33,723 bases of DNA from Candidatus Marinamargulisbacteria bacterium (GTDB taxonomy: Bacteria; Margulisbacteria; Marinamargulisbacteria; SXXA01; JAHFDB01): contig CAXNHA010000003.1 of NCBI GenBank assembly GCA_964202165.1, positions 1 to 33,723 of the forward strand. The letters run 5' to 3'. The position numbers and the translations under genes are program-made. The first letter of the stretch is position 1; each line of letters starts with the position of its first letter. Below are positions 1-17,400 of this stretch, piece by piece. Under the pieces are notes generated by a model. The model saw only the letters and a list, made by a program, of their open reading frames with translations. It was not told where the DNA came from and did no database searches.

Positions 1-2
1 GT

Positions 3-308
3 TTGCCAATTAAACCTGTCCAGAACCAGAAACCTGCTCAGCCTATTCAGAAGACAAGCCCGAATAAAGAGAAAAAACCTTTCGAAGAACCTGTCAACAA
101 GAAGCTCACACAACCTTTAAAAGACACAAGTTGGACAGAGTTCAACCCAAATAAGCCACTCCATGTGGAAAAATTGACGCAACAAGCGTCTCCAACCCAA
201 AAAGACGAATGCTCTCCGGATGGCGGGGGTGGGTGTCAGCCTTCTCAAGGCTGTAGTCCAAACGGGGTTTGTACTCCTGAAGGGTATGCTTGTCAACCGG
301 ACAGATAG
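3..308 (+). CDS. Putative RiPP precursor peptide, Cys/Pro-rich C-terminal core (possibly 5'-truncated)
   Basis: Cys-free K/P/Q-rich N-terminal 69 aa, then CSPDGGGG-CQPSQG-CSPNGV-CTPEGYA-CQPDR. Lies directly upstream of a 2OG oxygenase and an rSAM/SPASM gene. The TTG at 3 is at the window edge, so the true start may lie upstream. Confidence 0.75.
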   Translation: MPIKPVQNQKPAQPIQKTSPNKEKKPFEEPVNKKLTQPLKDTSWTEFNPNKPLHVEKLTQQASPTQKDECSPDGGGGCQPSQGCSPNGVCTPEGYACQPDR

Positions 309-848
309 GTGTCAGAAAAGGAGCTCTACCTCCAACATCGGTTTTTCTTTTTCTCAAATCTTTTAGACAAAACCAGCACCCAGCACTTCTTGACTGAATT
401 TCCTTCTTTCTCTTCTCGAAGGGTTGTTTGTGGTGGTGCTGGTGTGTCTTGGGATGAATTTGCAGTACCAGAGGAAAGCCAGTTGTTTCGGTTTTTTCAT
501 TCCGAAAAAATTCTTTCCATTGTCTTTGGCACCGCAGGTATTCCAAGACAAAACTATAAAGCCAGCATTTGGGTCAATCGCTATAAAGAGGGTGAATACA
601 TCAACCCGCACAGAGACAATGGAGGCTCTACCCAGTTGCTGGTCTGTTTGCGTGGAACAGATGAATCCAACGGGGGCGGGCTTTTCTTAGAAGAAAGCAA
701 GGGTGTTGCCCATCATTTGCAACTAAAAGCTGGAGAAGCTGTTTTGTTTGAAGCCACAACGTTAAAACATTGGACAACACCACTTGTCGCCACACCAAAT
801 CATAAAAGTCCAATAAGGGAGGTTGCTGTTGCGCGCTACTACATCTAA
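309..848 (+). CDS. 2OG-Fe(II) oxygenase, prolyl-4-hydroxylase-like
   Basis: VNRYKEGEYINPHRD (HxD, His codon at 609), GGGLFL, GEAVLF, distal His (LKHWT, 768) and 2OG-binding Arg (816). GTG start directly follows the precursor TAG. Confidence 0.85.
   Translation: MSEKELYLQHRFFFFSNLLDKTSTQHFLTEFPSFSSRRVVCGGAGVSWDEFAVPEESQLFRFFHSEKILSIVFGTAGIPRQNYKASIWVNRYKEGEYINPHRDNGGSTQLLVCLRGTDESNGGGLFLEESKGVAHHLQLKAGEAVLFEATTLKHWTTPLVATPNHKSPIREVAVARYYI
815..822 (+). promoter_or_regulatory. Shine-Dalgarno for the radical SAM gene
   Basis: AAGGGAGG lies 6 nt upstream of an in-frame TTG at 829, inside the 3' end of the oxygenase gene. Confidence 0.5.
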
Positions 849-2160
849 TGTCGATTGTTTGTCACACACTATTTTATTAGATCATGCTTATTTTTCATTT
901 TCAGAAGATGTTTACTTGGTGAAGGGGGCTTCCAGGCATTGTATATATGACCTGAAGAATGGGTATTTATACGCCATCAGCGCATTGGCAAAAGACGTAT
1001 CAGATGCATTACACACAAAACCCTATGCTTACAAAGATCTATCAGATGAAGCCAAATCTATTGCAGATTTTTTTCTCGAATCAGGTCTCTTAGAGACTTC
1101 TTCTGCACCTGCAACAATGCAAGACATACTAACCTTAAAAAGAGAGTTTTCACCTTCTTTTTCTTGGATAGAGGTCACTAGAAAATGCAACTTAAAATGT
1201 ACGTTTTGTTATGAAGAGTCTAGTCCAGATTGCTACGAAAAAATGGATTTTGAAGACTTTAAGTTGGCCATAAAGAATCTAAAAGATGTGGGCATTCGCA
1301 ATATCCAATTTATTGGTGGCGAGCCCATGATCCTTGGCGATGAACTCAAAAAGATGATTACCTATTGCCGACAAAACCCAACTGATTTTGATTTTATTGA
1401 GGTGTATACCAACGGGGTCTTTATTCAAACGCATTGGTGTGAATTCTTTAAAGAACATGACATCAGATTGGCCCTGTCTGTGCATTCGTATATCCCTGAA
1501 GAACATGACAAAGTAACCCTAACAAAGGGATCACATGCACGGGTTATACGTGCTATAGATTTGATTCAACGATTTGAAATCCCTTATAGAGTTGGAGCTG
1601 TTCAAACAGCCTCTTGTCAGGTGGGAGAAAAAACAGAAACTACCTCATATACCATTCGGCCAGATAATGTACGTTTGTCTGGTAGAGGAGCCATCTCTCA
1701 ATATAATTTGGACATGTTTAAACAAAAAGCTATTACCAAAGACAAAAAACGCTATCCCATTACAAAGCAACAAGTTGTCCAACATGTATCTGGGCATCAG
1801 TGTTTTATGAAAGACTTGTATATCGGTACTCAGCTTGATGTCTTTCCTTGTGTGATGGAAAGACGATTTTTGTATGGCAATCTCAAAAAAGAGTCGCTAA
1901 AAAAAATCGTGCAGGCAGCAACAACGAGATACTTATCAAAAGATAGTATTGATGGGTGTAAAAGCTGTGAATATCGTTATGGATGTTTTGATTGTAGACC
2001 AGATGCCAATGGGTTGGGCGAATTTCAAAAACCTTGGTTTTGCTCTTACGACCCCTACACAGGAGAATGGTCTGATTTGGAGGAGATGTTTAGCAACTTG
2101 CAACAAGGCATCTATCACGCTTCTGTCTACAAATCTTCTCCAGTACTTGCTCTGTCATGA
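829..2160 (+). CDS. Radical SAM/SPASM domain peptide maturase with probable N-terminal RRE
   Basis: CNLKCTFC (CxxxCxxC, 1186-1209), GGEP, YTNG. SPASM cysteines C-x15-C...CKSCEYRYGCFDC...WFCSYDPYTGEW. About 110-aa N-terminal extension (VKGASRHCIYDLKNG). The ORF track starts at 823; 829 is preferred because of SD spacing. Confidence 0.9.
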   Translation: MRATTSNVDCLSHTILLDHAYFSFSEDVYLVKGASRHCIYDLKNGYLYAISALAKDVSDALHTKPYAYKDLSDEAKSIADFFLESGLLETSSAPATMQDILTLKREFSPSFSWIEVTRKCNLKCTFCYEESSPDCYEKMDFEDFKLAIKNLKDVGIRNIQFIGGEPMILGDELKKMITYCRQNPTDFDFIEVYTNGVFIQTHWCEFFKEHDIRLALSVHSYIPEEHDKVTLTKGSHARVIRAIDLIQRFEIPYRVGAVQTASCQVGEKTETTSYTIRPDNVRLSGRGAISQYNLDMFKQKAITKDKKRYPITKQQVVQHVSGHQCFMKDLYIGTQLDVFPCVMERRFLYGNLKKESLKKIVQAATTRYLSKDSIDGCKSCEYRYGCFDCRPDANGLGEFQKPWFCSYDPYTGEWSDLEEMFSNLQQGIYHASVYKSSPVLALS

Positions 2161-3878
2161 TTTCTGGAGTTACGTCCCTTTCTTTTCAAAAACAAAAAAA
2201 AGTCATTCAAAAAGATGTCACCAAAGGACAGGAAGGCCCCCAAGAAAATAAGATCTACAACATCCTAACATTAGCTCGTCTGGAAGATTTAAATATATCC
2301 CAAAAATATCAATCCAAAGATGATTGGGATGCTTATGAGCAGAATAAAAAAAATTCGGATGCACAATTTGTTGCCAAAGATAGGGGCCGGAAAAAAGCCT
2401 ACTTAGGTCTAGACAACTTGAAGGCATTTTCTTCTGACAAGATCGAGCTATTACAATATCCTAAGACTCTCTCAAAAGAATTGCCTAGCTCGGCGTTGTT
2501 TTCTCAAATTGCACGAGGCGTTCGTTTTATGCACCATAATGACATTGTCCACATGGATCTTAAAGAAGGAAACATCTGTTTAAATAGAAAAGGTACGCCA
2601 AAAATTATAGACTTTGGCGTTTCTAAAGATCTAAAAGAACCCTTGGAAAACCAAGGCCCTATTGGCACCAGACATTATCAAAGTCCTGAATTAATTCATG
2701 CTTTTGTTCATAAAAAAATATCGGGGGTTGATTTAAAAAAGGCAGATATTTTTTCGTTGGGGGTTTTATTTTTTAATAGGCTGATCTCCTCAAAAAAAGA
2801 GGAGTCCGAATATCATTTGATCAAGTGTGTTTACCAAGTAGAAAATAAGAACTTGGATCTTTCTTTAAGAAAAAAAAGTGTCTATAAGTGGGTCCAAGAT
2901 ATTGACAACACATGGATAAATGTCTGGAAAGATCCAGATAAACAAGAGGCTTTTCGCAAAATAATATCCCGCGAACTCAAAGCCCATTGCGATATTTTTG
3001 GAAAAGAAGCCATTGAATGTATTGTGCGGATGCTAGACCCCTTGCCTGAAAAACGTCCTTCTTTAGATCAGATTATCGATACCATTTCAAAAAAAATGGA
3101 GCTATTGGATAAAAATATATCAATTGTACAAGATTTTTTGGCACATCCTTGTTTTAAGAAAGCGATCAACAGCCCCACATATCGGTCAAATACGGCAAAA
3201 GAATTATTGGTCAATCTTGGCGAAATAGGATTGAGTAGCTTGACATACCATTCACGCGAAGCGTTGATCTTGGGCAAAGGATTCCAACGGTTTTATCTGA
3301 CCGTTTTTATGAGAAAATTTCGTGAACTTTCCCGTTTATATCCCAGAATCATGCATGCTATTCGCAAAGACTATATCTCAAGTTTGAGCGAAAAAGACAA
3401 AGACGCTTTGCAGATGGCTTTAAAAACAAATGCAAAAAAAGCAAACAAGACGATTCTTTATGATATGTGTCATGGAGCCATTGTGTATGCCATTTTGCAA
3501 TCCGTTAAGCAAGATATGGATTGGCTTCCCTATGCTTTATGTATTGCATCACAGCCCATTATTGACTACCTACGCCTTGAAAAATCGCAGGTGTTTTATG
3601 AAAAAAATCGCCTTCAGCTTAAGAAAAATGATCCTGAGTTATCAAACATGATTGAGTCAAAAGATAAATATAAAATGATGATTGCAGAAAGTTTGCTAAG
3701 CTTTCTCATTAATACTGCTGGAGAGTATATATTTTATCAGATGGTCGACGGCGCGCTTGTTGAAAAAAATGGGGAAAAATCTCTACAAAACGATGCGTGG
3801 ATACATACATACGTGTTGGTGGCTTCGCTTATGTTGCTTTTATTGGGGCATTTTGGATTTGATTCACAAAAGCTATAG
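2157..3878 (+). CDS. Hanks-type Ser/Thr protein kinase with C-terminal helical/hydrophobic region
   Basis: HMDLKEGN catalytic loop, DFG, GTRHYQSPE, ADIFSLG, KRPS. ATGA overlap with the rSAM stop. Hydrophobic C-terminus YVLVASLMLLLLGHFGF. Confidence 0.85.
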   Translation: MISGVTSLSFQKQKKVIQKDVTKGQEGPQENKIYNILTLARLEDLNISQKYQSKDDWDAYEQNKKNSDAQFVAKDRGRKKAYLGLDNLKAFSSDKIELLQYPKTLSKELPSSALFSQIARGVRFMHHNDIVHMDLKEGNICLNRKGTPKIIDFGVSKDLKEPLENQGPIGTRHYQSPELIHAFVHKKISGVDLKKADIFSLGVLFFNRLISSKKEESEYHLIKCVYQVENKNLDLSLRKKSVYKWVQDIDNTWINVWKDPDKQEAFRKIISRELKAHCDIFGKEAIECIVRMLDPLPEKRPSLDQIIDTISKKMELLDKNISIVQDFLAHPCFKKAINSPTYRSNTAKELLVNLGEIGLSSLTYHSREALILGKGFQRFYLTVFMRKFRELSRLYPRIMHAIRKDYISSLSEKDKDALQMALKTNAKKANKTILYDMCHGAIVYAILQSVKQDMDWLPYALCIASQPIIDYLRLEKSQVFYEKNRLQLKKNDPELSNMIESKDKYKMMIAESLLSFLINTAGEYIFYQMVDGALVEKNGEKSLQNDAWIHTYVLVASLMLLLLGHFGFDSQKL

Positions 3879-3900
3879 CATAAAAAATCACAAAAAAACT

Positions 3901-3930
3901 TAGACGGCTCTCTCTAGAATATGCTATGCT
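3901..3930 (+). promoter_or_regulatory. Candidate sigma70 promoter for ftsZ
   Basis: TAGACG (3901-3906), 18-nt spacer, TATGCT (3925-3930) preceded by TGn, in the intergenic region upstream of the SD-supported ftsZ start. Confidence 0.3.
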
Positions 3931-3988
3931 CCTGTCCCAAGCTTTTAAGCACAACTTTTTCAAAAAAGTGACAATTGAGGAGTTACCT

Positions 3989-5191
3989 TTGACACAAGAA
4001 AATCTTCGGAATTATGCCAATATAAAAGTGATGGGAATTGGGGGTGGAGGCGGAAATGCAGTCAATCGCATGATTGCCTCTGGCGTCAAAGGGGTAGAAT
4101 TCTGGACCATTAATACCGACTTGCAATCTCTCAACGTATCGCTATCAGACAATAAACTCCAAATAGGTGCCAAGCTCACAAAAGGACTTGGGGGTGGTGC
4201 AATTCCCATGGTGGGAGAACAGGCTGCAAAAGAGAGCAAAGAAGATATAGAGGCCGCTCTAGAAGGCTCAGACATGGTGTTTGTCACAGCAGGTATGGGG
4301 GGAGGAACAGGGACTGGTGCTGCTCCGGTTGTTGCAAAAATTGCCAAAGAATTGGGCGCTCTTACCATTGGCGTTGTCACAAAACCGTTTAAATTTGAAG
4401 GCCCTGTGAGATCGCGTCAAGCAGAAGAAGGTTTGCGAAAACTAAGAGAGCATGTAGATGCTTTGATTATTATCCCCAATGATAAATTGATGAATGTTGT
4501 CGAAAAAATAACCTCTATGTTGGATGCGTTTCGGTTTGCAGATGATGTGTTGAGGCAAGGGGTTCAGGGTATCGCAGATCTTATTACGGTTCCTGGTCTG
4601 ATCAACTTGGACTTTGCTGATGTACGTACCATCATGATGAATTCAGGTTCAGCTATGATGGGGATGGGACGTGCCAGTGGAGAGGACCGTGCGGTTGTTG
4701 CAGCTACACAGGCCATTTCTTCTCCTTTGCTTGAAGAAACCGTATATGGGGCTACAGGGGTGATCCTCAATATTACCGGCAGTGAAAATTTATCTTTACA
4801 CGAAGTGCATGCAGCAGCTGAGGTGATCTACGCAGCGGTTGATCCTGATGCCAATATCCTATTTGGTTCTGTGGTGGATGAACGCCTAGAAAATGAAATT
4901 ATGATTACGGTTATTGCAACTGGGTTTAAAAATCAAGGTCAAGAAAGTAGTATTCTAAAGCGTCAATTGGCTTTTTCAACCTCAGATCAAGTCCTAGATG
5001 AGGACACCATAGAAGAGGATATCGAGTCTGTCTCTCAAAAAGAAGAAAGACGATCGATTGATCAAGCGCCTGTGTCTCCCTCTTCTTCTCTCACCCAAAC
5101 ACCCACCATTCCATCAGAGTCTATCCCTGATTCTCCTCAACAAGAATTTGATTTGGACGTGCCTGCATTTTTGAGAAACCTCAGCAACTAG
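3989..5191 (+). CDS. ftsZ: Cell division protein FtsZ
   Basis: [23 protein letters not shown] tubulin signature, INLDFAD, C-terminal LDVPAFLR. Start placed at TTG 3989 because GAGGAG lies at 3977-3982 (ORF track gives 3926). Confidence 0.98.
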
Positions 5192-5198
5192 TTAGCCA

Positions 5199-5507
5199 AT
5201 GCGATGGTCTTTTTGGCTGGCTATTGTTTTTGTCTTTTCTTTTTTTACTACCTGTAGAGCAACTCACATTTTTAAAGATATTCCAGCCCAACATTGGGCG
5301 AGGCAATCTGTAGAAAGATTGGATCATCTTGGGATTACCAGTGGCTACCAAGATGGGACATTTCGGGGTCGAAAATCGCTTTCTAGGTATGAATTGGCCT
5401 TGTATTTGTCCAATCTCGAACACATACAGAGTAAGCAATTGGCCCAACTTTATCAAAAAATTCAAGATCTTCAGTCAGAAATCAATCACTTAAAATCACA
5501 TCCATGA
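5199..5507 (+). CDS. Secreted S-layer homology (SLH) domain protein with short coiled coil
   Basis: Signal peptide, then FKDIPAQHWA...LGITSGYQDGTFRGRKSLSRYELA (SLH consensus), then heptad LYQKIQDLQSEINHL. Confidence 0.85.
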   Translation: MRWSFWLAIVFVFSFFTTCRATHIFKDIPAQHWARQSVERLDHLGITSGYQDGTFRGRKSLSRYELALYLSNLEHIQSKQLAQLYQKIQDLQSEINHLKSHP

Positions 5508-6691
5508 CAGATTCTTTTGAAGAATGGCTCCATCAAAAAACCCATTCCCTATCGGATCCATCTCTCAGACGAACCTTGCACCCTATTTGCCATCAACAAG
5601 GGTCTCTTATTCGTCTCAATGACACCTCTTATATATCGTTTACTTCCAACGATTATCTTGGATTGTCGCAACACGAAGATGTGTTGCAATCCTATCGTGA
5701 CGGCATTGCCAGATGGGGGGCGGGATCCGGCGGTTCGCGTGTTTTGGGTGGCGATCGGGAGGTGTTTCATATCTTGGAATCAAGACTGGCCTCTCTTACC
5801 GGCCAAGAATCGGCCTTGGTATTTAACAGTGGTTATCAAGCCAATGTGGGTATTGTGTCGGCATTGCTTACAGAAAAAGATGTGATTTATGCAGATAAAA
5901 AAATCCATGCCAGTATCTTGGATGGTGCAAGACTATCCAAAGCAAAGTTGTACCGATTTGCTCACCACAATACAACCCATCTCAAAGAGATACTTACAAA
6001 AACAAGGGATCTCTATGCCAATGCCCTTATTGTCACCGAGTCTGTGTTTAGCATGGATGGCGATTTTTGTGATATTCAAGAGCTTGTTCATCTAAAAGAG
6101 GCGTTTCAAACATGGCTCATGATTGACGAAGCCCATGCATTTGGGATTTATGGCAAGCGGTATCAGGGTAGAATAGACTGCACCCAATGGGCAAAATCTG
6201 TCGACGTGACAGTGGGTGCTTTTGGAAAAGCTGTTGGTACCTGCGGGGGATTTGTATCTGGAACAAGGCTTCTCAAAGAATGGCTTATTCAAGCTTGCCG
6301 GAGTTTTTTGTTTTCCACTGCGTATTGCCCAGCCATTGCCGCTGCAACACTGACGAGCTTGGATATCCTTGCACCAGGAGACTTGCAAGGGCAGTTGGCG
6401 ATAAGAGTAGCCTCGTTCAAAGAACAACTCACCCTAAACAAAATCCCATTCTTAGGTCAATCTCATATCATTGGGGTTGTGATAGGGGATGAGCAAGAGG
6501 CCATGGATGTTGCACAGTATTTTCAAAACAATGGGCTTTGGGTACAAGCCATCCGACATCCTACAGTTGCCAAGGGGGAAGCGCGCTTGCGTTTGGTTAT
6601 TACAGCCATGCATACCCAAGATATGATAGATCGGCTCATAACGATTTTATGTTCACCCTATGTTCGTGAAAAAATTCGTTTCATTGCATAA
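5504..6691 (+). CDS. bioF: 8-amino-7-oxononanoate synthase
   Basis: SNDYLGL, GSGGSR, SGYQAN, HASILDG, ESVFSMDGD, DEAH, FGKA (PLP lysine), IRHPTV..GEARLR. Confidence 0.88.
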   Translation: MTDSFEEWLHQKTHSLSDPSLRRTLHPICHQQGSLIRLNDTSYISFTSNDYLGLSQHEDVLQSYRDGIARWGAGSGGSRVLGGDREVFHILESRLASLTGQESALVFNSGYQANVGIVSALLTEKDVIYADKKIHASILDGARLSKAKLYRFAHHNTTHLKEILTKTRDLYANALIVTESVFSMDGDFCDIQELVHLKEAFQTWLMIDEAHAFGIYGKRYQGRIDCTQWAKSVDVTVGAFGKAVGTCGGFVSGTRLLKEWLIQACRSFLFSTAYCPAIAAATLTSLDILAPGDLQGQLAIRVASFKEQLTLNKIPFLGQSHIIGVVIGDEQEAMDVAQYFQNNGLWVQAIRHPTVAKGEARLRLVITAMHTQDMIDRLITILCSPYVREKIRFIA

Positions 6692-6750
6692 ATTTTCATG
6701 CAAGTTTAAACAAAAACCCCACGATAGTCTCTGTATAAAAAGAGATTATC

Positions 6751-7377
6751 ATGCCAAACACATCTTTATTTTTTTATAGCCGACACCTTCTTCTCCTAGG
6801 GATGGTGCTCTATTGCGCCACTTTTCTTGTTGCAGAAGACTTGGTCATTCTAAAAAACGGGCAACCCGCTATCACCAACAATGGTGCCGGCATACCCGAG
6901 TATGCAAGCCCCACGACACTCGCTCAAGATGCCCTTTCTGGTTTACCTGACATTTATGTACGTTCTTATTCTTTTAGAGGCACACTCACTTCCATGGAAA
7001 CACTGATTGCAAACGGTTTGAACACAGCGGATCAAGGGAATACCTTGCAAGAGCTCAAAGTGCTCGGTAGCCCTCTGTGTTATCCAAGCCCTTTTAGGCC
7101 TGCGTATGGCACAGAGCTTCGTTTTACCATGAACCGTGATGCGGAAGTGCAGATTAGAATTTATGACATGGCAGCAACTCAAGTGTATCAAGGAAATTTT
7201 CCAAAAGGGGGGGTGTTTAGCCCCTCTCCATCAGATCGTCTGGGTGTACTTGGCATCAATAGCCTCAAAATTAGCCAAGCGTTGTTGGGGTCCGATATGT
7301 CAGCAGGTGTCTATTTTGTGTTGATCATGAGCGATGGAAAAATATTGGCAAAAACAAAAGTGGCGGTCATACCATGA
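6751..7377 (+). CDS. Small secreted protein with T9SS type A sorting domain-like C-terminus
   Basis: Signal peptide. YPSPF...VQIRIYDMAA...MSAGVYFVLI...KTKVAVIP resembles the Por secretion tail (YPNP...IYD..G...GVYF...K). Confidence 0.7.
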   Translation: MPNTSLFFYSRHLLLLGMVLYCATFLVAEDLVILKNGQPAITNNGAGIPEYASPTTLAQDALSGLPDIYVRSYSFRGTLTSMETLIANGLNTADQGNTLQELKVLGSPLCYPSPFRPAYGTELRFTMNRDAEVQIRIYDMAATQVYQGNFPKGGVFSPSPSDRLGVLGINSLKISQALLGSDMSAGVYFVLIMSDGKILAKTKVAVIP

Positions 7378-8446: not shown

Positions 8447-11400
8447 ATGAATACAACACCTACCTTATATCGCTTATTTTGCAAAAAAATAACCCTGTTT
8501 CTGTTTGGATTGGGGCTTGTTTTTTTTCAGGCTACGCTTGCTCATGGGGTAACCATGAATATCCAAGATACCTACTACTCAAAGACGCAAGATAAATATC
8601 TAAATGGCACTTACTCCGGTGTGGTTTTTAAATTAAAAACAGCAACCGCTATCCTCTTTGAAACCACAATCCCCCAAGTTACGTTTACCAATGGATATTT
8701 TGAGATTTCTGTCAGTGTCAATGCCACCTTGTTTAACCGTACGTTGCCCATTGAAGCCGTCCTTACTGTACAGGGAGAGTCTATGTCTTTCCCGTTGCTA
8801 TCCGTCCCATACGCCATTCGATCAACTGTAGCTGAACTAGCCCGCAGTATCCCTATATCTGCTATAAAAGGGTCTTTTGCGACCGTTAACGTTAAGAATG
8901 GCATTTCTGTTCGCAACCTTCAGAATAAAAGTGTCTTTATTGCCAAAAAAAACACCTCTGTTGGCATCTTAAATGGAGCACCTGCTTTTTCATTGGATAT
9001 TAGAGGGACTGTCAATGCAACCAACTTGCTTGTAAACAAGGGGGATATTCGCACCATTTTTTCCTGGAAGGCTGACGCGACCAATCCAAATAACATCTAC
9101 TTTAAAGGCGGGTTTGTTGGCATCAATACCAACAACCCTTTTTTTGGACTTCATGTTGATGGAACAATCAATGCCTCGACTTATCTGATCAATGGACAAA
9201 AACTCAGCAACTCTTTGGATTGGAAAAGGAACCCCACAATTACGCCCAATGTTTACTACCAAGATCTTGAGGCATTTGTGGGTATTGGTACAGCTGTGCC
9301 AAAAGAAAAAGTAGATGTTGTTGGGGGGCTCAAACTAAGTATTCCGAAAGGCATCGCAAATACAGTTGGCACCATTCAATGGACAGGCTCTGTTTTTAAG
9401 GGGTATCTTCTTCTACCTGATAATGCAATTCCCACATGGCGGGTATTTCCGGGGATAAATGGATCGGGAAATACCAACAAAGTAGCCTTATGGAGCGGTC
9501 AAGATCTATTCGCTTTTCCCAACAACCTTTCCTATTCAAGTTTGCTACGCATGGATCCTACTGCCAATGCTATCGGTATCGGTGGGCTTGGCACCTCAAA
9601 GCTTGATATTTTTGGGACTCAACTGGGTCGAAACCTCCTGTCTGTGATTGGCAGTCAAGCTGAACCCTCTCTTGTTGTTTTGCCAGAGGGAAATATAGGC
9701 ATCGGTGTTCAAACACCTGCCTACAAACTTCAGATAGCAGGGGTCTTGGATGCCCAAGATTTTACAGTCAATGGAGAAATTTTACGGCTTACCTATTCTG
9801 TGAATGATATTTGGACACGACGCCCTTCTTCTCGCAGCATCTACTATCTTCTGAATAACATTGGTATTGGTCGTCCCGATCCTAAGAATCTATTGGAGAT
9901 TGCTCAGCCAACGGGAGTGCCTACCCAAAATCCTGCCATCACATTTACCAACACATCCACCTTGGTCTCTTATACACTAGGCGTAGATACCCACTCAAAA
10001 AACACATTTAGAATTGAGAAGGGTATTGCCCTTGGGCAATCAAAGCCTCTTTTTGTGGCACAAGAAGGTCGGTTTGGGGTGGGTACAGATCCCCCAAAAG
10101 CCAACCTCCATGTAAGTGGCAATGAAGGGATTGTTTTTTCTGGTACATTTTTACCCTTGGGCACCACATCCAACTATCTTCCTGTCTCGGGACCTGGCAC
10201 ACGTTTGTTGTGGTATCCTCCCCGATCCGCTCTTAGAATAGGCACCGTCTCTACTGCAAATTGGAACTTTAACAATCAAGGTCTATACACCGTTGGAATG
10301 GGTCTCAATCCCTTGGTAGAAGGAAACCTAAGCGTTGCTATGGGTGGTGCACAAAACCAGGTAACGGGGGTATATGCCTCTAGTGTTGGGGGATTTAACA
10401 ATCAGGCTCAAGGTGATTTTTCTTTGGCATTGGGTCGCAACACACAGGCCCTTCATCATGGCACATGGGTATGGGCAGACAACCAGAACTCTCCTATTGG
10501 CTCTGTGGGAGAAAACCAAGTAATTTTACGTGCATCTGGTGGCGTTGCAATAGGGACATCCAATATCCAACAAACGGGACTGACCTTATCACGATCTGCA
10601 CCAACTGGAAGTATCTTGTCATTGGTTGGAAATGAGACCGTGTCTTTTCAGGTGAGCTCAAACGGACTCATTAGAATAGGCTCATCACCTATATCTTCGC
10701 CATCTACAGGACCCCCTACCAAGTTGTCTGTATTGGGAGATACGGGACTTGGGACACTGGCATCCTATGGCATGCTCGGCATTCAACCTGCATCCACATT
10801 TGACACGGTCATGATGATTATTGGCAATCAAGGTGTTGCAACTCCTGCCATGATGGTGACCAAAGAGTTGGGTGTGTATATCGGCACAACACCTTCTTTT
10901 AGATTTGTTGATCTAGAACATCCAGATTTGCAAACCAATGGATTTATTCGAGTGGCGAGTGGCAGTGTACTCGCAGATTCTTATACATTTCCAGACGGGC
11001 AACAATTATCTGGCGATCCTCCAAATTATGTTTGGCAATACCGCAACACCACTCCCAATATCTATTTTGTATCCGGAAATGTGGGTATTGGCACAACAAC
11101 CCCTAGACATTTGCTCCATTTATCTAATATGGGAAGCTTGGCATTTGAACCTCCCGGGTTATCTCCTCTCATTACCATCAATTTGGACGACCAGGATCTC
11201 TATACATTCGGCATTTCACGTACGATTCCGGATCGGTTGATCATACAACCTAGTACGATGAATGCAGTAAATAGTCCTTTTTCTGTATGGGGTAACCGTG
11301 TGGGTATTGGGACTGTTTTCCCAAAAGTCGCATTACATGTATCTGGCGATGTGTTTGTAGCCTCTCGGATTCGTGTTGGAACACCCGCCAACGCAAGTAG

Positions 11401-14400
11401 CCTATCTGTCAGCGGGTCCATTGCCAGCAACAAATTCTTTATCAAAGGATCCGTTATTGCCCCCGGAGGTACGCCTTGGTCCTCTTTTATATCCCCATCC
11501 AGACTCTATTATGATACGGTGTTAGACCCCGCAAAAAACCTCTATAGTTTTGTGGGTATTGGAACCCAAATACCCCGCTCAGCACTGCATGTCGCAGGCA
11601 CGCTTCGTTTGCTTGGAGATACTGAAAATTTGCCATTTCTGCGCATATCCAAGGAACTCTATGGCAACACGGTATCGCAAAACGAGGTGGCATTAAAAGA
11701 CACCTCAGGATCTATCTATTCTAGCTTATACGTTACTGGCAACAGACTTTTTCTTAAGGGATCTATTGTATGGTCTATATCGGATGTATTTTCAAAAGGG
11801 GCTGGACAGTATGGCAACATTGCCTTGTGGGTGCCCCTTGCCGATCAAACAACTTCCTATACCTTGGGAGACTCCGCATTAATCTGGGATTCTAGACAAG
11901 GAAGCAATCCAGGCAAATTGTTGTTTGAAGGGGATATTCTAAGCGATATTACCAAAACAACCCCTTCTTCTTTTTTGATCACCAATACCACCCGGATTGG
12001 AAATCCGACGTTGCTCAATGTGATAGATGTGCAATCGTCCATCGATCATAATGGTGCGCTGAGTAATTCCAAATCACATTCTGGGAAACGCGTTATGCTC
12101 ACCTATGACAAAGATACCGAGGGAGGACAGTCAGAGGGTGTATCCATTACCCTACGTCAACCCCCCAATGCTTCTTTTACTGCGGGCGCTCAAGCCATTG
12201 GACTGTCTGTAGATTCATCAGGTGTAGCTGTGCAGTCTTTTGGAGATAAAGGTCTCAACACAGCTGCTGTTTTTTTGGGAAAAGTAGGGATTAACACCAT
12301 GACGCCCAGTGCAGACTTAGATGTAAGAGGGTCTATATTGGCCAAGTTTTTTACCATCTCCAGACAACTCACCATGTCCACGCTCAATGTGACCAACAGC
12401 CTTAGCATTATGTCTCAAAACAGAGTCGGCATTGGCACCACAACGCCAAAAACAGATTTGGAAATTGTGAATAGCATGCAAACAAACTCTCTGATCGCAA
12501 GCGGGATCCATACCGAATCCCTCACCGTAGCCCCAGCATTTTTTTCTGTGAATAATTTTCGAGTCGGCATTGGCACCACAACGCCGGTTGCCCAACTTCA
12601 TATTTCAAGATCGTTTTTGGATATTCTTCCTACCGAATTTTCTTTTCAAAATCTTGGGGTTAGCATCAATATTGCAACTGCTCTTCAAAATTGTTTTGGG
12701 CTTGATATTGCTATTCGATCTGCATCGCCAGCAGGTCTATTTCCTCTGCCAAACAATTATCTAGGTAGTTTTGATGGCACCTCAAAAGAAGCAAAGGGGA
12801 TTGCCATCTCCTTAAAAAACATCATTGCCGACCAACCCTTCCGTGAGATCACCGGACTGTCCATCACCCTGCCTAAACAGAGCACCCAAAACGCAGCCAT
12901 TTTTAGGGGAGGCTTTGTTGGCATTGGCGTCTCAGATCCTCAGACAGAATTGGATGTAGCAGGCACCGTATCCGTGGATTACTTCAAAAACAAATTATCC
13001 AGTACACTTAGTAGCGGGGCTTTTGACTTTTTAGAGGTGAGATCCTCTACTCAAAATCTGAGGGTTACAGGGCCCGTTGTGATGGAAAACGCAACAGTAA
13101 AAGATTTGATCCAACAACAATTATCCGTCAAAAAAATCCTTTATTTTAAAGACAAAAGTCTCAGTATCAACTCTGCTCTTTTGTCGGGCAGAGGCAATAT
13201 CGTCTCTACCTTGTCAGCCCAATCGATGCAAGTGAGCACAGATATCGCTGTAAGAGGCCCAGCCCAGCTTCTTTCTCTTTCCTCTGGAAAAGATGCATTT
13301 GCCCCTATTGGGGTTGCTATTATTGGAAAAACACAGGTGGCGTCGGTTTCTGTATCAGAGGCTCTGTTTGCAAATACTGTATCGATCAATGCTCTCTTTG
13401 TGATGAACAAAGACAGAAAATTAGGCATCGGCACCACAGCCCCTCGCTATGGTATTGATATTCAGATACCGCCCAGCCTCACCCCTATAATAGGCACGCC
13501 CATTCTTTTTGAGGCAAACAACAACGAGTCCTGGAATGCCATCCGAATCAGCCAATCCCAAGGGAACGCCGTGGGTCTCTTGGCAGTATCTGACACCGAT
13601 AGTGGTTTTACCTCAGGATCCGGGGTGGTGGCCATAAAAACAGGCAACTCAAGCTCGGCACTGTCTTTTTTGTCTGATCCAGACTCTGGCCCACCGGCAG
13701 AACATATGCGCATTACATCCTCTGGAAATGTGGGCATCGACACCTCATCTCCGCAGTCCAAACTAGATATTAATGGGGATACAATTGTGCGTGAATCTGG
13801 ATCTGTCAGCAACCCTGTATCAGTCAAAACGGTCTCAAGTCCCGCGGGACTATCGTTGCTTTCTTCGCTCATTCTTCCCACTGATTCTAGTGTAACAGGG
13901 TACGGTGCGTCCGAGCAGTCGATCGAGTTGCGTCCTACAACCCCCGATGTTGCGGCAACAGGAATCCTCTCTCTGTTTGTAAGAGAAAAAGACAACAGCC
14001 TCTATTTTCAAACCCTTTCATCAAGCGGTCACTCTGTATCCGAAAATTTGAGCATACCCATTACCTCCTCAGCATGGGGACTGGCCACCTATAGTACAAA
14101 AAATCGCTTGGCAAGTGCCAAATCACTCCAATGGGTACCTTCTACCACCTCTCCCAATATTCTAAAAGTCAATTCTCTTGTGTCATTGATGGGAGGACCC
14201 GGTACTGCATCTGGCAAAAACAATGCCGTATCCAGTGCTCTTTATATGACCATCAATGACCGGACAAAACCCAGTACCGCACGGTTTACTGGCACTACCA
14301 TTGTGCTTGGCAATAGCCAAGCAGGCCCCCTCCCTTATGTGGGTACTAATCAAACAGCAGTGGGCATTGGCGTCGATATGGATAGGCTAAAAGAAGCCGG

Positions 14401-17400
14401 TACCACTAGCCAAGGGCTCTCTACTCTATCCAAAAAAATTGCGGCCGTCTTTTTATCTGGCAGTCAAACCAGTGGCAATGTCGGTATTGCCACCAGTCCC
14501 AATAGCACATCTGTTATGGATCCCATGGCAGCCTTGCATGTGCGATCCGACAGTCCTACCCAATCGTTGTTTTTGCTGCAGGCCCAAGATACAACGGGAA
14601 AAAAAGACCCATTGCTTATCGTACTTCCTACTGGAAATGTTGGCATTGGTACCGCCACTCCCGGCTCTAAATTGTCCATTTTATCTGCTGATACGACCCA
14701 ATCTTCTTTGGCATTTTTGGTACTTAACAATCAAGAAAAACCCCTTTTTGCCCTCACCAATGAGGGTCAACTGGGCATTGGAAGGCTAAAACCCGCTGCG
14801 GGGCTTCAGTTAACGGGAACCCTGAGATCCACGACGTTTCACTCCCATACCTTGAGCCTTCCCTCTTTACGATTGGGGGATTATTTTTCGGTAGATGCAT
14901 CAGGCATTGGCATGGGGATATATCCTCCCAAAGCAGATTGGCATATCATTCGGTCTTTTGTACGCCCTTCCAAGGCTGTTTTTTTGGAAAAAATAGCCCT
15001 GGCAATTCCTGCAAATACGGGGATCAATGCCAACATAGCAGGCCTCCAATATGCTACAAAATCCAAGTTGGCCAACACATTTGGATCTCTTCAAAATACA
15101 CCAATCGACAATCGAGGCATGGGAATATCACTAGAAAAAATGGAGCTGGCTCCAAATGGGATTCTCACCGGACTTTATGTCACCGTTTCTGCTAACAATA
15201 GCCAAAATGAAAACCCAAGATGGACAGCTGCTTACTTAGGTGGGGGGAAAGTAGGTATCGGCACAAGTACGCCGGAGATGACGTTGGATATCAATGGGGA
15301 TTTGCGTGCACGATCTATCTATGCCGACAATTCTCTTTTTAATGTACCCACCGCCAAGCTAATCTCTATGGCTGTACGCAAAAACGCCCCTTTTTTAGGG
15401 GATGCTTATGTCTCTGGCAATGTGTTAACTGTTTCAAAAATATTGTCCATTGAGAATACCACATCGCTCACACTCTTGTTTTCCGACCCTACCCATAAAA
15501 TACTTGAAAGCAACCAGTTGCTTCGGGCTATAGATGCAACAGTGCCGGCCTTATCCGTTGGGGTGGTGGGTCGACCTCAAGATCAATTTCCTCCTGATAC
15601 TTCGAGACGCTTGTATACAAAAGGGGATGTAAAAATAACAAACGGCAAGTTTGATGCAGGCCTAGCTCTGTCTCGGTTAAATCTGCTAAACAGCATAAAT
15701 GCCCCTCTTTACCTCCAAGCTAGTAATATTGTGGTTGACCGCTCTTTGCGAGGAGATATTGTGATGTTAACTCCCTTTGAGATGAACGCTGTAGACCCTC
15801 TTTTTGGAGCCGTGTATACCAGCACCGCAATTGAGACTCCAGATGAATGGATGTATAAGTCATCTGCAACAGAGATAAAAGACAAGGATGGTAAGATTAT
15901 TAATCCTGGAATCAACATCTCTAAAACAATCAAAGTTCCTACATCCAACGAAGGTGCATTGCCCTTCTTTTCTCCTGAATATGCCAACAACATTCATCCT
16001 ATTACAGGTCTGTCGTGGCTTGCATCAACGAGCTCACGCACCGCCTCCATTCTGTCTATCAAAAGCGATGAAAATGCCACAGATCATGTTGCTGGATTAG
16101 ACCTCATTGATTTTATTGGTCTTCAACGCGTGAATACCCATGTCGCCCATACGCTTCACATGGGATTTAACAACCGTATCGCCAAAACCAATTCTACCTT
16201 CAAGGGTCTGTCTATCTTGTTGCAATCAAACAGCAATGTTCCCCTATCAAACAGCGATACTGCGATAGGCCTAACGGTAGATATGTCCAAGCTGCCAAAT
16301 CGTGGGTCTACACAATTGCCTATCGAAGAAGATAAGCCTCTCAACGGTCAACGATACGCTGCATTTTTCTTGTCAGGAAAAGATGTGCCAGGCAATGTCA
16401 TGATTGGACCGGCACGTAAAAATCCTTCTGCAAATCTTCATGTTGTTGCCGGATCTACAGCACCTGCTTTGTGGATAGACAGTCTCACGACGCCCCATAT
16501 TCTTTCTGTGACCGCTACCGGCAGTGTTGGCATTGGTACAACAGCCAATAGCACCCTCACACTAGAAGGCCCCCTCCGTATTGCAACGGATACGAGCCTT
16601 CTGTTTGTTGCAACCACCAATCAGAGAGTTGGCATTGGCACCCCCACACCAGACAGCACCCTTACCCTTGTGAATAACACATCTACCCTCTTGTCTTTAT
16701 CTGCTCAGGCAATGCCTGCCCGTTTTGTGGTGGATGCAGCGGGTAGCATGGGGATAGGGGTGTCGGCTCCCCTCGCCCGAGCTCATCTCAGTGCACCGCC
16801 ATCTTCTCTTCAATCTAATCTCACGGCCACAGTCAGGTACAATAATGTGGATTCTACGCCTATCAGTAAGTTAGGCTTTACTCAGCAAAATGGTTATCTA
16901 GTCGATCAGCAGGGCAATCAACAAGTTATTACGCGGAACAACGGGCAAGGTAATCTCGAACAACTTTATATCGGTATCGTGAAGGTGAATGATACATACT
17001 ATTATTACGGCTCCAAATATGCTGTAAACACCTCTACACCTGAGGAAGAATCCGTACCACTCAACGTACCTCTTTTGCTCGCAATAGGCACAAAAAACAG
17101 CACTATCGAGGTGCCCTTTAGGATATCGGCATCCGGTAATATTGGGATTACCACACCCGTTGCTAGAAGCACATCCTATGCCCCCCCATCTTTGGGTTAT
17201 TCACTCTCTGTCAGCAAGAATGTATTGTCTGGATCTTCTTCTTCGCTGAAGTCAATACGTGCCTTGAATACCTATCAAGGATTTGTTGCAGCACAAAATC
17301 AAGACTTTTTATGGACAGGTCTCAATACTACAAAACCCACTATCTTGTTTGGAAAAACAAGCGCAGATCCCTCTTCTTTTGCAATTGTACAAGGTAAAAA

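Follow-up and report, generated by a model that had tools for sequence, protein, structure and literature searches.

A Cys-x-Pro repeat peptide and a radical SAM/SPASM enzyme as the probable precursor and maturase of a widespread, unnamed RiPP family in Candidatus Marinamargulisbacteria

Do the four tightly packed genes at the start of a contig from Candidatus Marinamargulisbacteria constitute a single system for making a modified peptide, and which of them would take part in it? The stretch of DNA analysed here, hereafter the window, is the entire contig C3 (CAXNHA010000003.1) of 33,723 bases, and belongs to a genome of 914 kb in 79 contigs that is 64.6% complete. At its start, four open reading frames (ORFs) follow each other on the forward strand with zero intergenic space: a short ORF with a Cys-x-Pro (CxP) repeat (ORF1), a 2-oxoglutarate (2OG)-Fe(II) oxygenase, a radical S-adenosylmethionine (rSAM)/SPASM enzyme and a eukaryotic-like protein kinase. 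The original prediction for this locus, made from the sequence alone, had joined all four into a new system for a ribosomally synthesised, post-translationally modified peptide (RiPP). The reading that we favour, with a probability of about 0.72, is narrower: ORF1 and the rSAM enzyme would be the precursor and the maturase of a widespread and unnamed RiPP family, the oxygenase would tailor the same peptide, and the kinase would be unrelated to it.

The rSAM gene occupies positions 829 to 2160 of the forward strand (its ORF opens at 823) and encodes a predicted peptide maturase with an N-terminal leader-binding domain that resembles a RiPP recognition element (RRE), as judged from Pfam matches, conserved Cys residues and the complex model described below. 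Pfam analysis recognised the rSAM domain PF04055 at 71.6 bits (cut-off 29.5) and the SPASM domain PF13186 at 22.4 bits (cut-off 21.5). Among 27 aligned sequences, the rSAM cluster motif C122-x3-C126-x2-C129 is invariant, as are six of the seven Cys residues of the SPASM region (C327, C343, C379, C382, C388 and C391), the seventh, C407, being at least 90% conserved. By these sequence features, the window enzyme is assigned to the radical SAM superfamily, with a SPASM domain. Pfam detected no PqqD domain in it; PF05402 is present in one distant family member (P0120). The protein collection contains 125 relatives at E ≤ 1e-10, all generically named, and 219 rSAM loci were confirmed in a species-representative genome set. 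These loci come from Bacillota (Clostridia, Selenomonadales, Tissierellia), Synergistota, Pseudomonadota, Bacteroidota, Patescibacteria, Spirochaetota, Methanosarcina and others, while within the window's own class one other genome (G012) carries an orthologue, at 56% identity, among the 41 genomes searched.

Inspection of the neighbourhoods of rSAM homologues for CxP-repeat ORFs, which had been proposed as a check on the original prediction, came out in its favour. All locus-level counts given here cover the best 80 of the 219 rSAM genome loci. At 58 of these 80, the interval from -3 kb to +2.5 kb around the rSAM gene holds a same-strand ORF of at most 160 amino acids (aa) with at least three CxP units, versus 3 of 80 for the opposite strand; counted by ORF, the figures are 80 of 2252 on the same strand versus 3 of 2568 on the opposite one. 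In the 77 distinct precursors collected in this way, 409 of 433 core Cys residues are followed by x-Pro, and the spacing from one Cys to the next is mostly 4-8. Asp stands at +3 in 25% of the units and, besides Cys and the Pro at +2, no position is conserved; the x of C-x-P is mostly Gly or Asp, and Ser in just 10% of units. Of the 77 precursors, 53 have a leader motif of the form E-x-[LMIV]-T, which in 52 of them is found 8-17 residues ahead of the first CxP. Some loci (L029, L038 and L043) carry tandem precursors, with 2-9 per locus, and at others the precursor is located just downstream of the enzyme.

ORF1 itself (positions 3 to 308, forward strand, with at least 101 aa visible) was placed in this family by its leader motif and its CxP core. 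Its first 69 residues are free of Cys, and residues 70-101 hold five CxP units (CSP, CQP, CSP, CTP and CQP), which bears out the leader/core architecture claimed earlier for the first gene. The putative core, delimited from the ORF sequence and by comparison with the family precursors, extends from position 210 to 305 and reads, with the following residue included, CSPD, CQPS, CSPN, CTPE and CQPD. The predicted leader recognition segment LHVEKLTQQA (residues 53-62, positions 159 to 188) contains EKLT (positions 168 to 179), which fits E-x-[LMIV]-T and stands 10 residues ahead of the first CxP, and, when aligned with 27 other precursors, ORF1 agrees with them at T15, C34/P36, C40/P42 and C53/P55. 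No other true CxP-repeat ORF exists in the genome of 914 kb, three further motif matches being alternative-frame ORFs, and the repeat of ORF1 exceeds chance. Neither Pfam nor NCBIfam gave a match for ORF1, and a tblastn search with it against the 80 genome loci returned no match, the precursors having been found through motif scanning instead. By BLASTP, 25 residues of its CxP region align with the precursor of locus L017 (E 0.015), and a likeness between the N-terminal PIKPVQN of ORF1 and QIRPINS of L017 was seen by eye and is not significant.

Since the window begins at contig base 1, ORF1 is open at its 5' end, and the TTG at position 3 is uncertain as its start codon. This end of the window overlaps with none of the genome's other contigs; contigs from RNA libraries extend 31-38 nt beyond base 1, and in the protein collection the proteins of the window are assigned to a contig of 38,900 bases. 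At L017 in genome G012, which is the closest orthologous locus, a stand-alone 94-aa precursor is encoded directly upstream of the rSAM gene; it has a Shine-Dalgarno site of its own, its upstream region is AT-rich, and ORF1 is therefore taken to be a small free precursor of similar length.

Recognition of the leader by the enzyme was explored in a model of their complex, in which the rSAM enzyme (27-row alignment) and ORF1 residues 45-101 (28-row alignment) were combined with three 4Fe-4S clusters and SAM. The interface score ipSAE was 0.88 in three runs, and 0.00 for the best control; that mark is attained in 58 of 80 solved complexes and in 2 of 110 mismatched pairs. At least 41% of the contacts were shared between runs, and the predicted local distance difference test (pLDDT) of the partner was at least 41. 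The modelled interface joins rSAM residues 46-56, 76-87 and 306-313 to LHVEKLTQQA, which comprises the sole precursor residues in confident contact with the enzyme. In the model, the docking domain is N-terminal and precedes the rSAM core, and the docked segment is the conserved leader motif. The model supports leader binding by the enzyme, in which the E-x-[LMIV]-T motif (VEKLT here) would dock as a strand on the N-terminal RRE-like domain. Neighbourhood enrichment, leader motif and binding model all agree with the earlier proposal that ORF1 is a RiPP-type precursor and the rSAM enzyme its maturase, and the sequence evidence supports the two genes as a precursor/maturase pair of a large family that has no curated model.

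Indeed, every NCBIfam model scores far under its cut-off against the window rSAM, the best being DynA (73 bits versus 450), and the SPASM model of the grasp-with-spasm systems reaches 72 bits (cut-off 175). No NCBIfam model attained its cut-off against ten precursors and six family enzymes, and the same six family members fell well under the cut-offs for the named thioether maturases PapB, SCIFF maturase, AlbA, StsB, CcpM, SkfB and QhpD. The ESM Atlas offers only generic 'radical SAM protein' names for the family, and the best match of the family profile among sequences in the PDB is SkfB (2.6e-21). In the literature we found no description of a CxP-repeat rSAM family, although supplementary tables of large rSAM-RiPP atlases may list it, in which case the novelty would shrink to a family that is uncharacterised but catalogued. 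The claim that this pair of motif and enzyme fits no described family is supported to this extent. PMC13289728 lists the antiSMASH ranthipeptide rule as keyed on the SCIFF precursor model; on that description, the rule should miss the CxP family. The system is an uncharacterised variant among the rSAM-modified Cys-rich RiPPs, and is widespread rather than peculiar to this genome.

The nearest known systems are the ranthipeptides and sactipeptides (PapB/freyrasin, SCIFF/CteB, AlbA, StsB, CcpM and QhpD), which are alike in having an rSAM/SPASM enzyme with an N-terminal leader-binding domain (a predicted one in the window enzyme) beside a small, Cys-rich repeat precursor. The window rSAM is nevertheless below the named models: 52.4 bits versus 340 for PapB, 52.5 versus 500 for CcpM, 57.7 versus 850 for AlbA, 54.2 versus 625 for StsB and 47.9 versus 453 for QhpD. 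Its C-x-P repeat has no fixed acceptor (Asp at +3 in 25%) and differs from NxxC and the SCIFF pattern, as it does from CX3D. Periodic Cys residues also characterise the precursors of the Cys-every-fifth (CefB) family, which likewise have a dedicated rSAM/SPASM maturase; the CefB model gives 60.6 bits versus 600 for a family member, and none of the NCBIfam models is matched by the CxP precursors. Two other rSAM systems in NCBIfam/TIGRFAM, with CXXX and ACGX repeats, have periodic-Cys precursors as well.

A different likeness concerns the CxP triad. The anaerobic sulfatase-maturating enzymes anSME/AtsB, which are not known to have a leader-binding domain, are also rSAM/SPASM enzymes and also have Cys-x-Pro as a substrate determinant. 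The window rSAM scores 68.6 bits against the anSME model TIGR03942 (cut-off 349.45), and does so through the core domain alone. The target of anSME is C/S-x-P-x-R in a sulfatase, a consensus given as CXPXR in PMC13638132, whereas here it would be a repeat peptide in which Arg is not among the seven commonest residues at +4. The same source presents SbtM as an rSAM enzyme that converts a peptide Cys to a 5-thio-oxazole (PMC13638132), and on that account SbtM is a precedent for a Cys-local rSAM reaction in a RiPP, although there is no selenocysteine context in the window system. The TrsS model, which is a separate NCBIfam family and is not linked to SbtM here, gives 55 bits versus a cut-off of 490 for the window rSAM.

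Fused relatives of the enzyme are also found, in which the CxP run forms the protein's own C-terminus (L097:2366-3523, L098:4821-5888, L099:4831-5970 and L099:6717-7667, the last on the minus strand). A profile of these four proteins retrieves 1277 cluster representatives (50% identity) at E ≤ 1e-30, and in the last 110 residues of the best 150 of the 1277 (P0139-P0288) at least three CxP units occur in 142 and at least five in 124. In the fused proteins CxxxCxxC is preceded by about 40 residues, so that a leader-binding domain is absent; they retain just the first three of the SPASM-region Cys residues, and none of them reaches an NCBIfam cut-off. The form that acts in trans has both a leader and a leader-binding domain, and the form in cis has neither, as would be expected if the CxP run is the substrate. 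This layout is reminiscent of the borosins (OphMA), in which the core peptide is fused to the enzyme's own C-terminus: the related soil rSAM family carries a CxP core in the same place and is devoid of a leader-binding domain. The borosin enzyme is a methyltransferase, the fused family consists of rSAM proteins, and the window system is the in-trans form.

What the enzyme would do to its substrate can be narrowed from the pattern of conservation. The core would be read as a series of Cys-x-Pro units, 4-8 residues apart, and the rSAM enzyme, with its CxxxCxxC motif and full seven-Cys SPASM region, would act on each unit by abstracting a hydrogen within or next to it. With unconserved acceptor positions, and with units that can shrink to CQP-CNP (L039), triad-local chemistry fits better than classical thioethers to a distant acceptor. 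Conservation that is limited to Cys and Pro points away from classical Cys-to-acceptor thioethers, and the pattern appears to lend no particular support to classical sactipeptide or ranthipeptide bridges. The multiply thioether-bridged, hydroxylated and possibly phosphorylated product suggested in the original prediction is speculative. Our tentative first choice is a cross-link within the triad that joins the sulfur of Cys to either Pro or x. Abstraction of a Cys C-beta hydrogen, with a product derived from a thioaldehyde (anSME/formylglycine or SbtM/thio-oxazole type), is suggested by analogy and is a possible though doubtful route. Ranthipeptide-like thioethers to variable Asp, Glu, Asn or Ser acceptors would be rather unlikely, and other chemistry is improbable. 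Somewhat speculatively, we propose that one clade, in trans and in cis, performs a new triad-confined rSAM modification (a Cys-to-Pro/x bridge, or a thioaldehyde-derived heterocycle or aldehyde), with a 2OG oxygenase hydroxylating the same prolines in aerobes.

rSAM/SPASM enzymes beside Cys-rich peptides are a known source of novel peptide chemistry and, to our knowledge, every characterised family of this kind has so far brought a new bond type. The present family is large, with 219 genome loci across many phyla and a fused form with 1277 cluster representatives, and has no NCBIfam or Pfam family model. Furthermore, the window offers a compact natural set of precursor, oxygenase and rSAM enzyme, in which an O2-sensitive and an O2-dependent enzyme would work on one peptide.

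The second gene (positions 309 to 848, forward strand) encodes a predicted 2OG-Fe(II) oxygenase of 179 aa with a prolyl-hydroxylase-like fold, an assignment drawn from Pfam, the iron triad, a structural model and co-occurrence. The match to PF13640 is marginal (27.1 bits versus a cut-off of 27), and H101-x-D103, H154 and R170 are invariant in six homologues. The model (pLDDT 93) is a double-stranded beta-helix, with template modelling (TM) scores of 0.63-0.81 to 2OG oxygenases, among them PHD2, Pseudomonas prolyl 4-hydroxylase (PPHD) and viral collagen prolyl 4-hydroxylase (vCPH). The fold neighbours also include small-molecule oxygenases (PolD, SnoN, PasI and BesD-like enzymes), and since they are a mixture of protein-directed and small-molecule enzymes, the fold leaves the substrate unfixed.

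The company that the oxygenase keeps is more telling as to its role. Besides itself, it has five close relatives, at 37-41% identity, and six loci (L095-L100) emerged when metagenome contigs were scanned with the alignment of the oxygenase. At L097, L098 and L099, the oxygenase homologue lies directly downstream of an rSAM gene whose product ends in 8-13 CxP units; these rSAM proteins are 27-31% identical to the window rSAM, and L099 has a second such gene. At L095, an ORF with 15 CxP units adjoins the oxygenase homologue. Two PF13640 genes are found directly upstream of precursor and rSAM at L077 (49.7 bits, and 20 bits, which is under the cut-off), and a relative of one of them follows just after the rSAM gene at L025. 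Within the class, where the rSAM was searched for in 41 of 55 genomes and the oxygenase in all 55, orthologues of both are confined to the same two genomes, G000 and G012. This independent co-occurrence with CxP systems upholds the earlier view of the oxygenase as a partner, and suggests that it probably serves CxP-repeat substrates as a recurring accessory enzyme. Its translation follows directly on that of the precursor, and it would carry out O2-dependent tailoring of the same core, most likely hydroxylation of Pro, for which the invariant Pro of the repeat is the most plausible target.

The junctions of the four genes are as they had been described, co-oriented and abutting. The TAG stop of ORF1 (306-308) is directly followed by the GTG start of the oxygenase at 309, the rSAM ORF opens with TTG at 823 inside the oxygenase gene (given GGAGG at 818-822, the TTG at 829 is the better-fitting start), and the rSAM stop overlaps the start of the kinase gene in an ATGA at 2157-2160. 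A single TAG separates ORF1 from the oxygenase (306-311), both being in one reading frame, and a precursor-oxygenase fusion through TAG readthrough was considered. It was ruled out, since TAG terminates 142 long ORFs of this genome and is thus a normal stop; we read the TAG/GTG junction as termination-reinitiation coupling, not fusion. The claim that the block is AT-richer holds for part of it: GC content is 38.7% in the rSAM gene and 36.5% in the kinase gene, which jointly (829-3878) come to 37.5%, a value within the bottom 1.5% of 1384 windows of 3 kb (mean for the genome 42.5%, standard deviation 2.1), whereas ORF1 (47.1%) and the oxygenase (44.3%) are not AT-rich. The low GC common to the rSAM and kinase genes may reflect joint acquisition of both. 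A scan of positions 1-5400 for promoters and terminators found sites no more often than in shuffled sequence (6 versus 12.0 and 5 versus 4.8).

The fourth gene (positions 2157 to 3878, forward strand), which is coupled translationally to the rSAM gene, is predicted, from a Pkinase match and motifs, to encode a eukaryotic-like protein kinase with an orphan helical, membrane-anchored C-terminal domain. The Pkinase match (95 bits) covers profile positions 92-259 alone; the C-lobe motifs HMDLKEGN, DFG and SPE are present, and PDB kinases align from about residue 107. The first ~106 residues gave no match, with no N-lobe motif recognised by Pfam or in the PDB kinase alignment, and a single-sequence AlphaFold model (pLDDT 34.7) is unusable. 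For the C-terminal 264 residues, the class yielded one relative, a stand-alone membrane protein of 280 aa (L102:1444-2286, genome G050), which is flanked by ankyrin-repeat and leucine-rich-repeat (LRR) proteins and has no rSAM context. Ankyrin and LRR neighbours hint at a host-associated lifestyle in the class.

The original prediction had counted this kinase as a component of the system; on such a reading, it could phosphorylate Ser or Thr in the core (the CSP and CTP sites), as do the kinase domains of class III/IV lanthipeptide synthetases in comparison. The shared ATGA and the unusually low GC of both genes speak for such a four-gene system, as does the presence of Ser or Thr ahead of Pro in three of the five ORF1 units; kinase-like genes also occur within a few kb of the rSAM gene elsewhere (L015/L082, L022 and L034), and LanL and LanKC are matched weakly, below threshold (models NF038150 and NF038151, 34.7 bits versus 650 and 24.4 versus 575), over the kinase core alone. 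Against this, no full-length homologue was found among 8000 candidates scored, matches spanning 16-23% of the query, and the N-lobe is unrecognisable. The kinase-like genes at other loci number only 4 in 80, stand at varying positions and have nothing but the generic core in common, x is Ser in just 10% of the family's units, with mostly Gly or Asp in that place, and the single relative of the C-terminal domain is found in a non-RiPP context. We consider the four-gene system improbable and see little chance that the kinase acts on the peptide; it probably stands outside the peptide system, and would be a co-transcribed but most likely unrelated, lineage-specific gene. This component of the original proposal is accordingly not supported. 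A still more remote idea, which we regard as highly improbable, is that the contig end truncates a larger protein whose C-terminal tail is ORF1, such as an rSAM protein with a fused CxP tail as at L097-L099. The contig begins inside or at ORF1, the order of CxP tail and oxygenase is that of L097-L099, and a large fused family does exist. However, nothing in the 69 residues ahead of the first Cys resembles the rSAM/twitch region (by BLASTP, the fused proteins match ORF1 at CxP parts alone) and these residues bear the in-trans leader motif at the distance usual in the family, which the model docks on the RRE-like domain; the same locus encodes a separate, RRE-bearing rSAM enzyme, and the L017 precursor stands alone behind its own Shine-Dalgarno site and AT-rich upstream region.

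A further alternative is that the oxygenase is a chance neighbour with another substrate, the system then consisting of precursor and rSAM enzyme alone. Its adjacency is not conserved in G012, where the oxygenase is on another contig than precursor and rSAM, behind a 448-aa Pfam-less protein (L104:119-1465) whose stop is overlapped by the oxygenase orthologue. Moreover, the window's oxygenase subfamily was found at 0 of the 80 genome loci, by tblastn and with a hidden Markov model of the oxygenase alignment, and the fold neighbours include small-molecule enzymes, as noted above. On the other side stand the abutting stop and start codons, CxP repeats beside three to four of the six independent homologue loci, the recruitment of a different PF13640 lineage at L077 and L025, and the joint presence or absence of rSAM and oxygenase in the class. 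We regard a chance association as unlikely, and retain the oxygenase as a tailoring enzyme of the precursor/maturase pair.

The broken adjacency in G012 and the absence from the 80 loci count against the favoured reading as a whole, as do several other points. Of the six oxygenase loci, L096 has no CxP neighbour and L100 is ambiguous, and 22 of the 80 rSAM loci have no ORF with at least three CxP units, some of these having two and some lying on cut contigs. The start of ORF1 is missing. The complex score may partly reflect a resemblance to solved RRE-leader complexes, and the fold of the partner is uncertain. The chemistry proposed for the rSAM enzyme is deduced from conservation in sequences, and the ATGA overlap together with the low GC common to the rSAM and kinase genes argue that the kinase travels with the rSAM gene. 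Finally, coverage by RNA libraries is a hint of expression, tempered by the fact that such libraries can contain DNA. The contigs concerned, from two runs of one freshwater-metagenome study, match positions 1-317, 446-619 and 614-772 at ≥99% identity; no contig of these two runs falls on 773-3900, which is uninformative as to expression. In one of them (run X1), C244A replaces Ser81 by Tyr, at a non-conserved position of the spacer that follows the second CxP; this is a strain variant.

Several loci of the wider family show arrangements of their own. In Selenomonadales and Bacillota metagenome-assembled genomes (L029, L038 and L043), 4-9 tandem CxP precursors are present, with long leaders running VEKLTDE-LDKVSGG; such double-glycine-type leaders suggest, from their sequence, that export may proceed via a peptidase-containing ABC transporter. 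At L022, an ABC transporter follows the precursor, and L021 and L023 each have a second rSAM gene. At L019, an enzyme of the MbnB/TglH/ChrH family (MNIO; 6349-7194, 253 bits) and a 263-aa Pfam-less partner stand between the CxP precursor and the rSAM gene, so that two classes of Cys-directed enzyme are combined there on one precursor type.

In the remainder of the window, a Pfam scan of the 16 other ORFs found no transporter or protease domain (five of the 16 had no match at all), in agreement with what had been stated earlier. ftsZ lies downstream of the kinase gene, from 3926, and the other genes are housekeeping genes together with a very large ORF of 3822 aa (8447-19915), which has no Pfam match at E ≤ 1e-4. 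The latter is situated between two Pfam-less ORFs and a gene for a ComEA-like helix-hairpin-helix protein.

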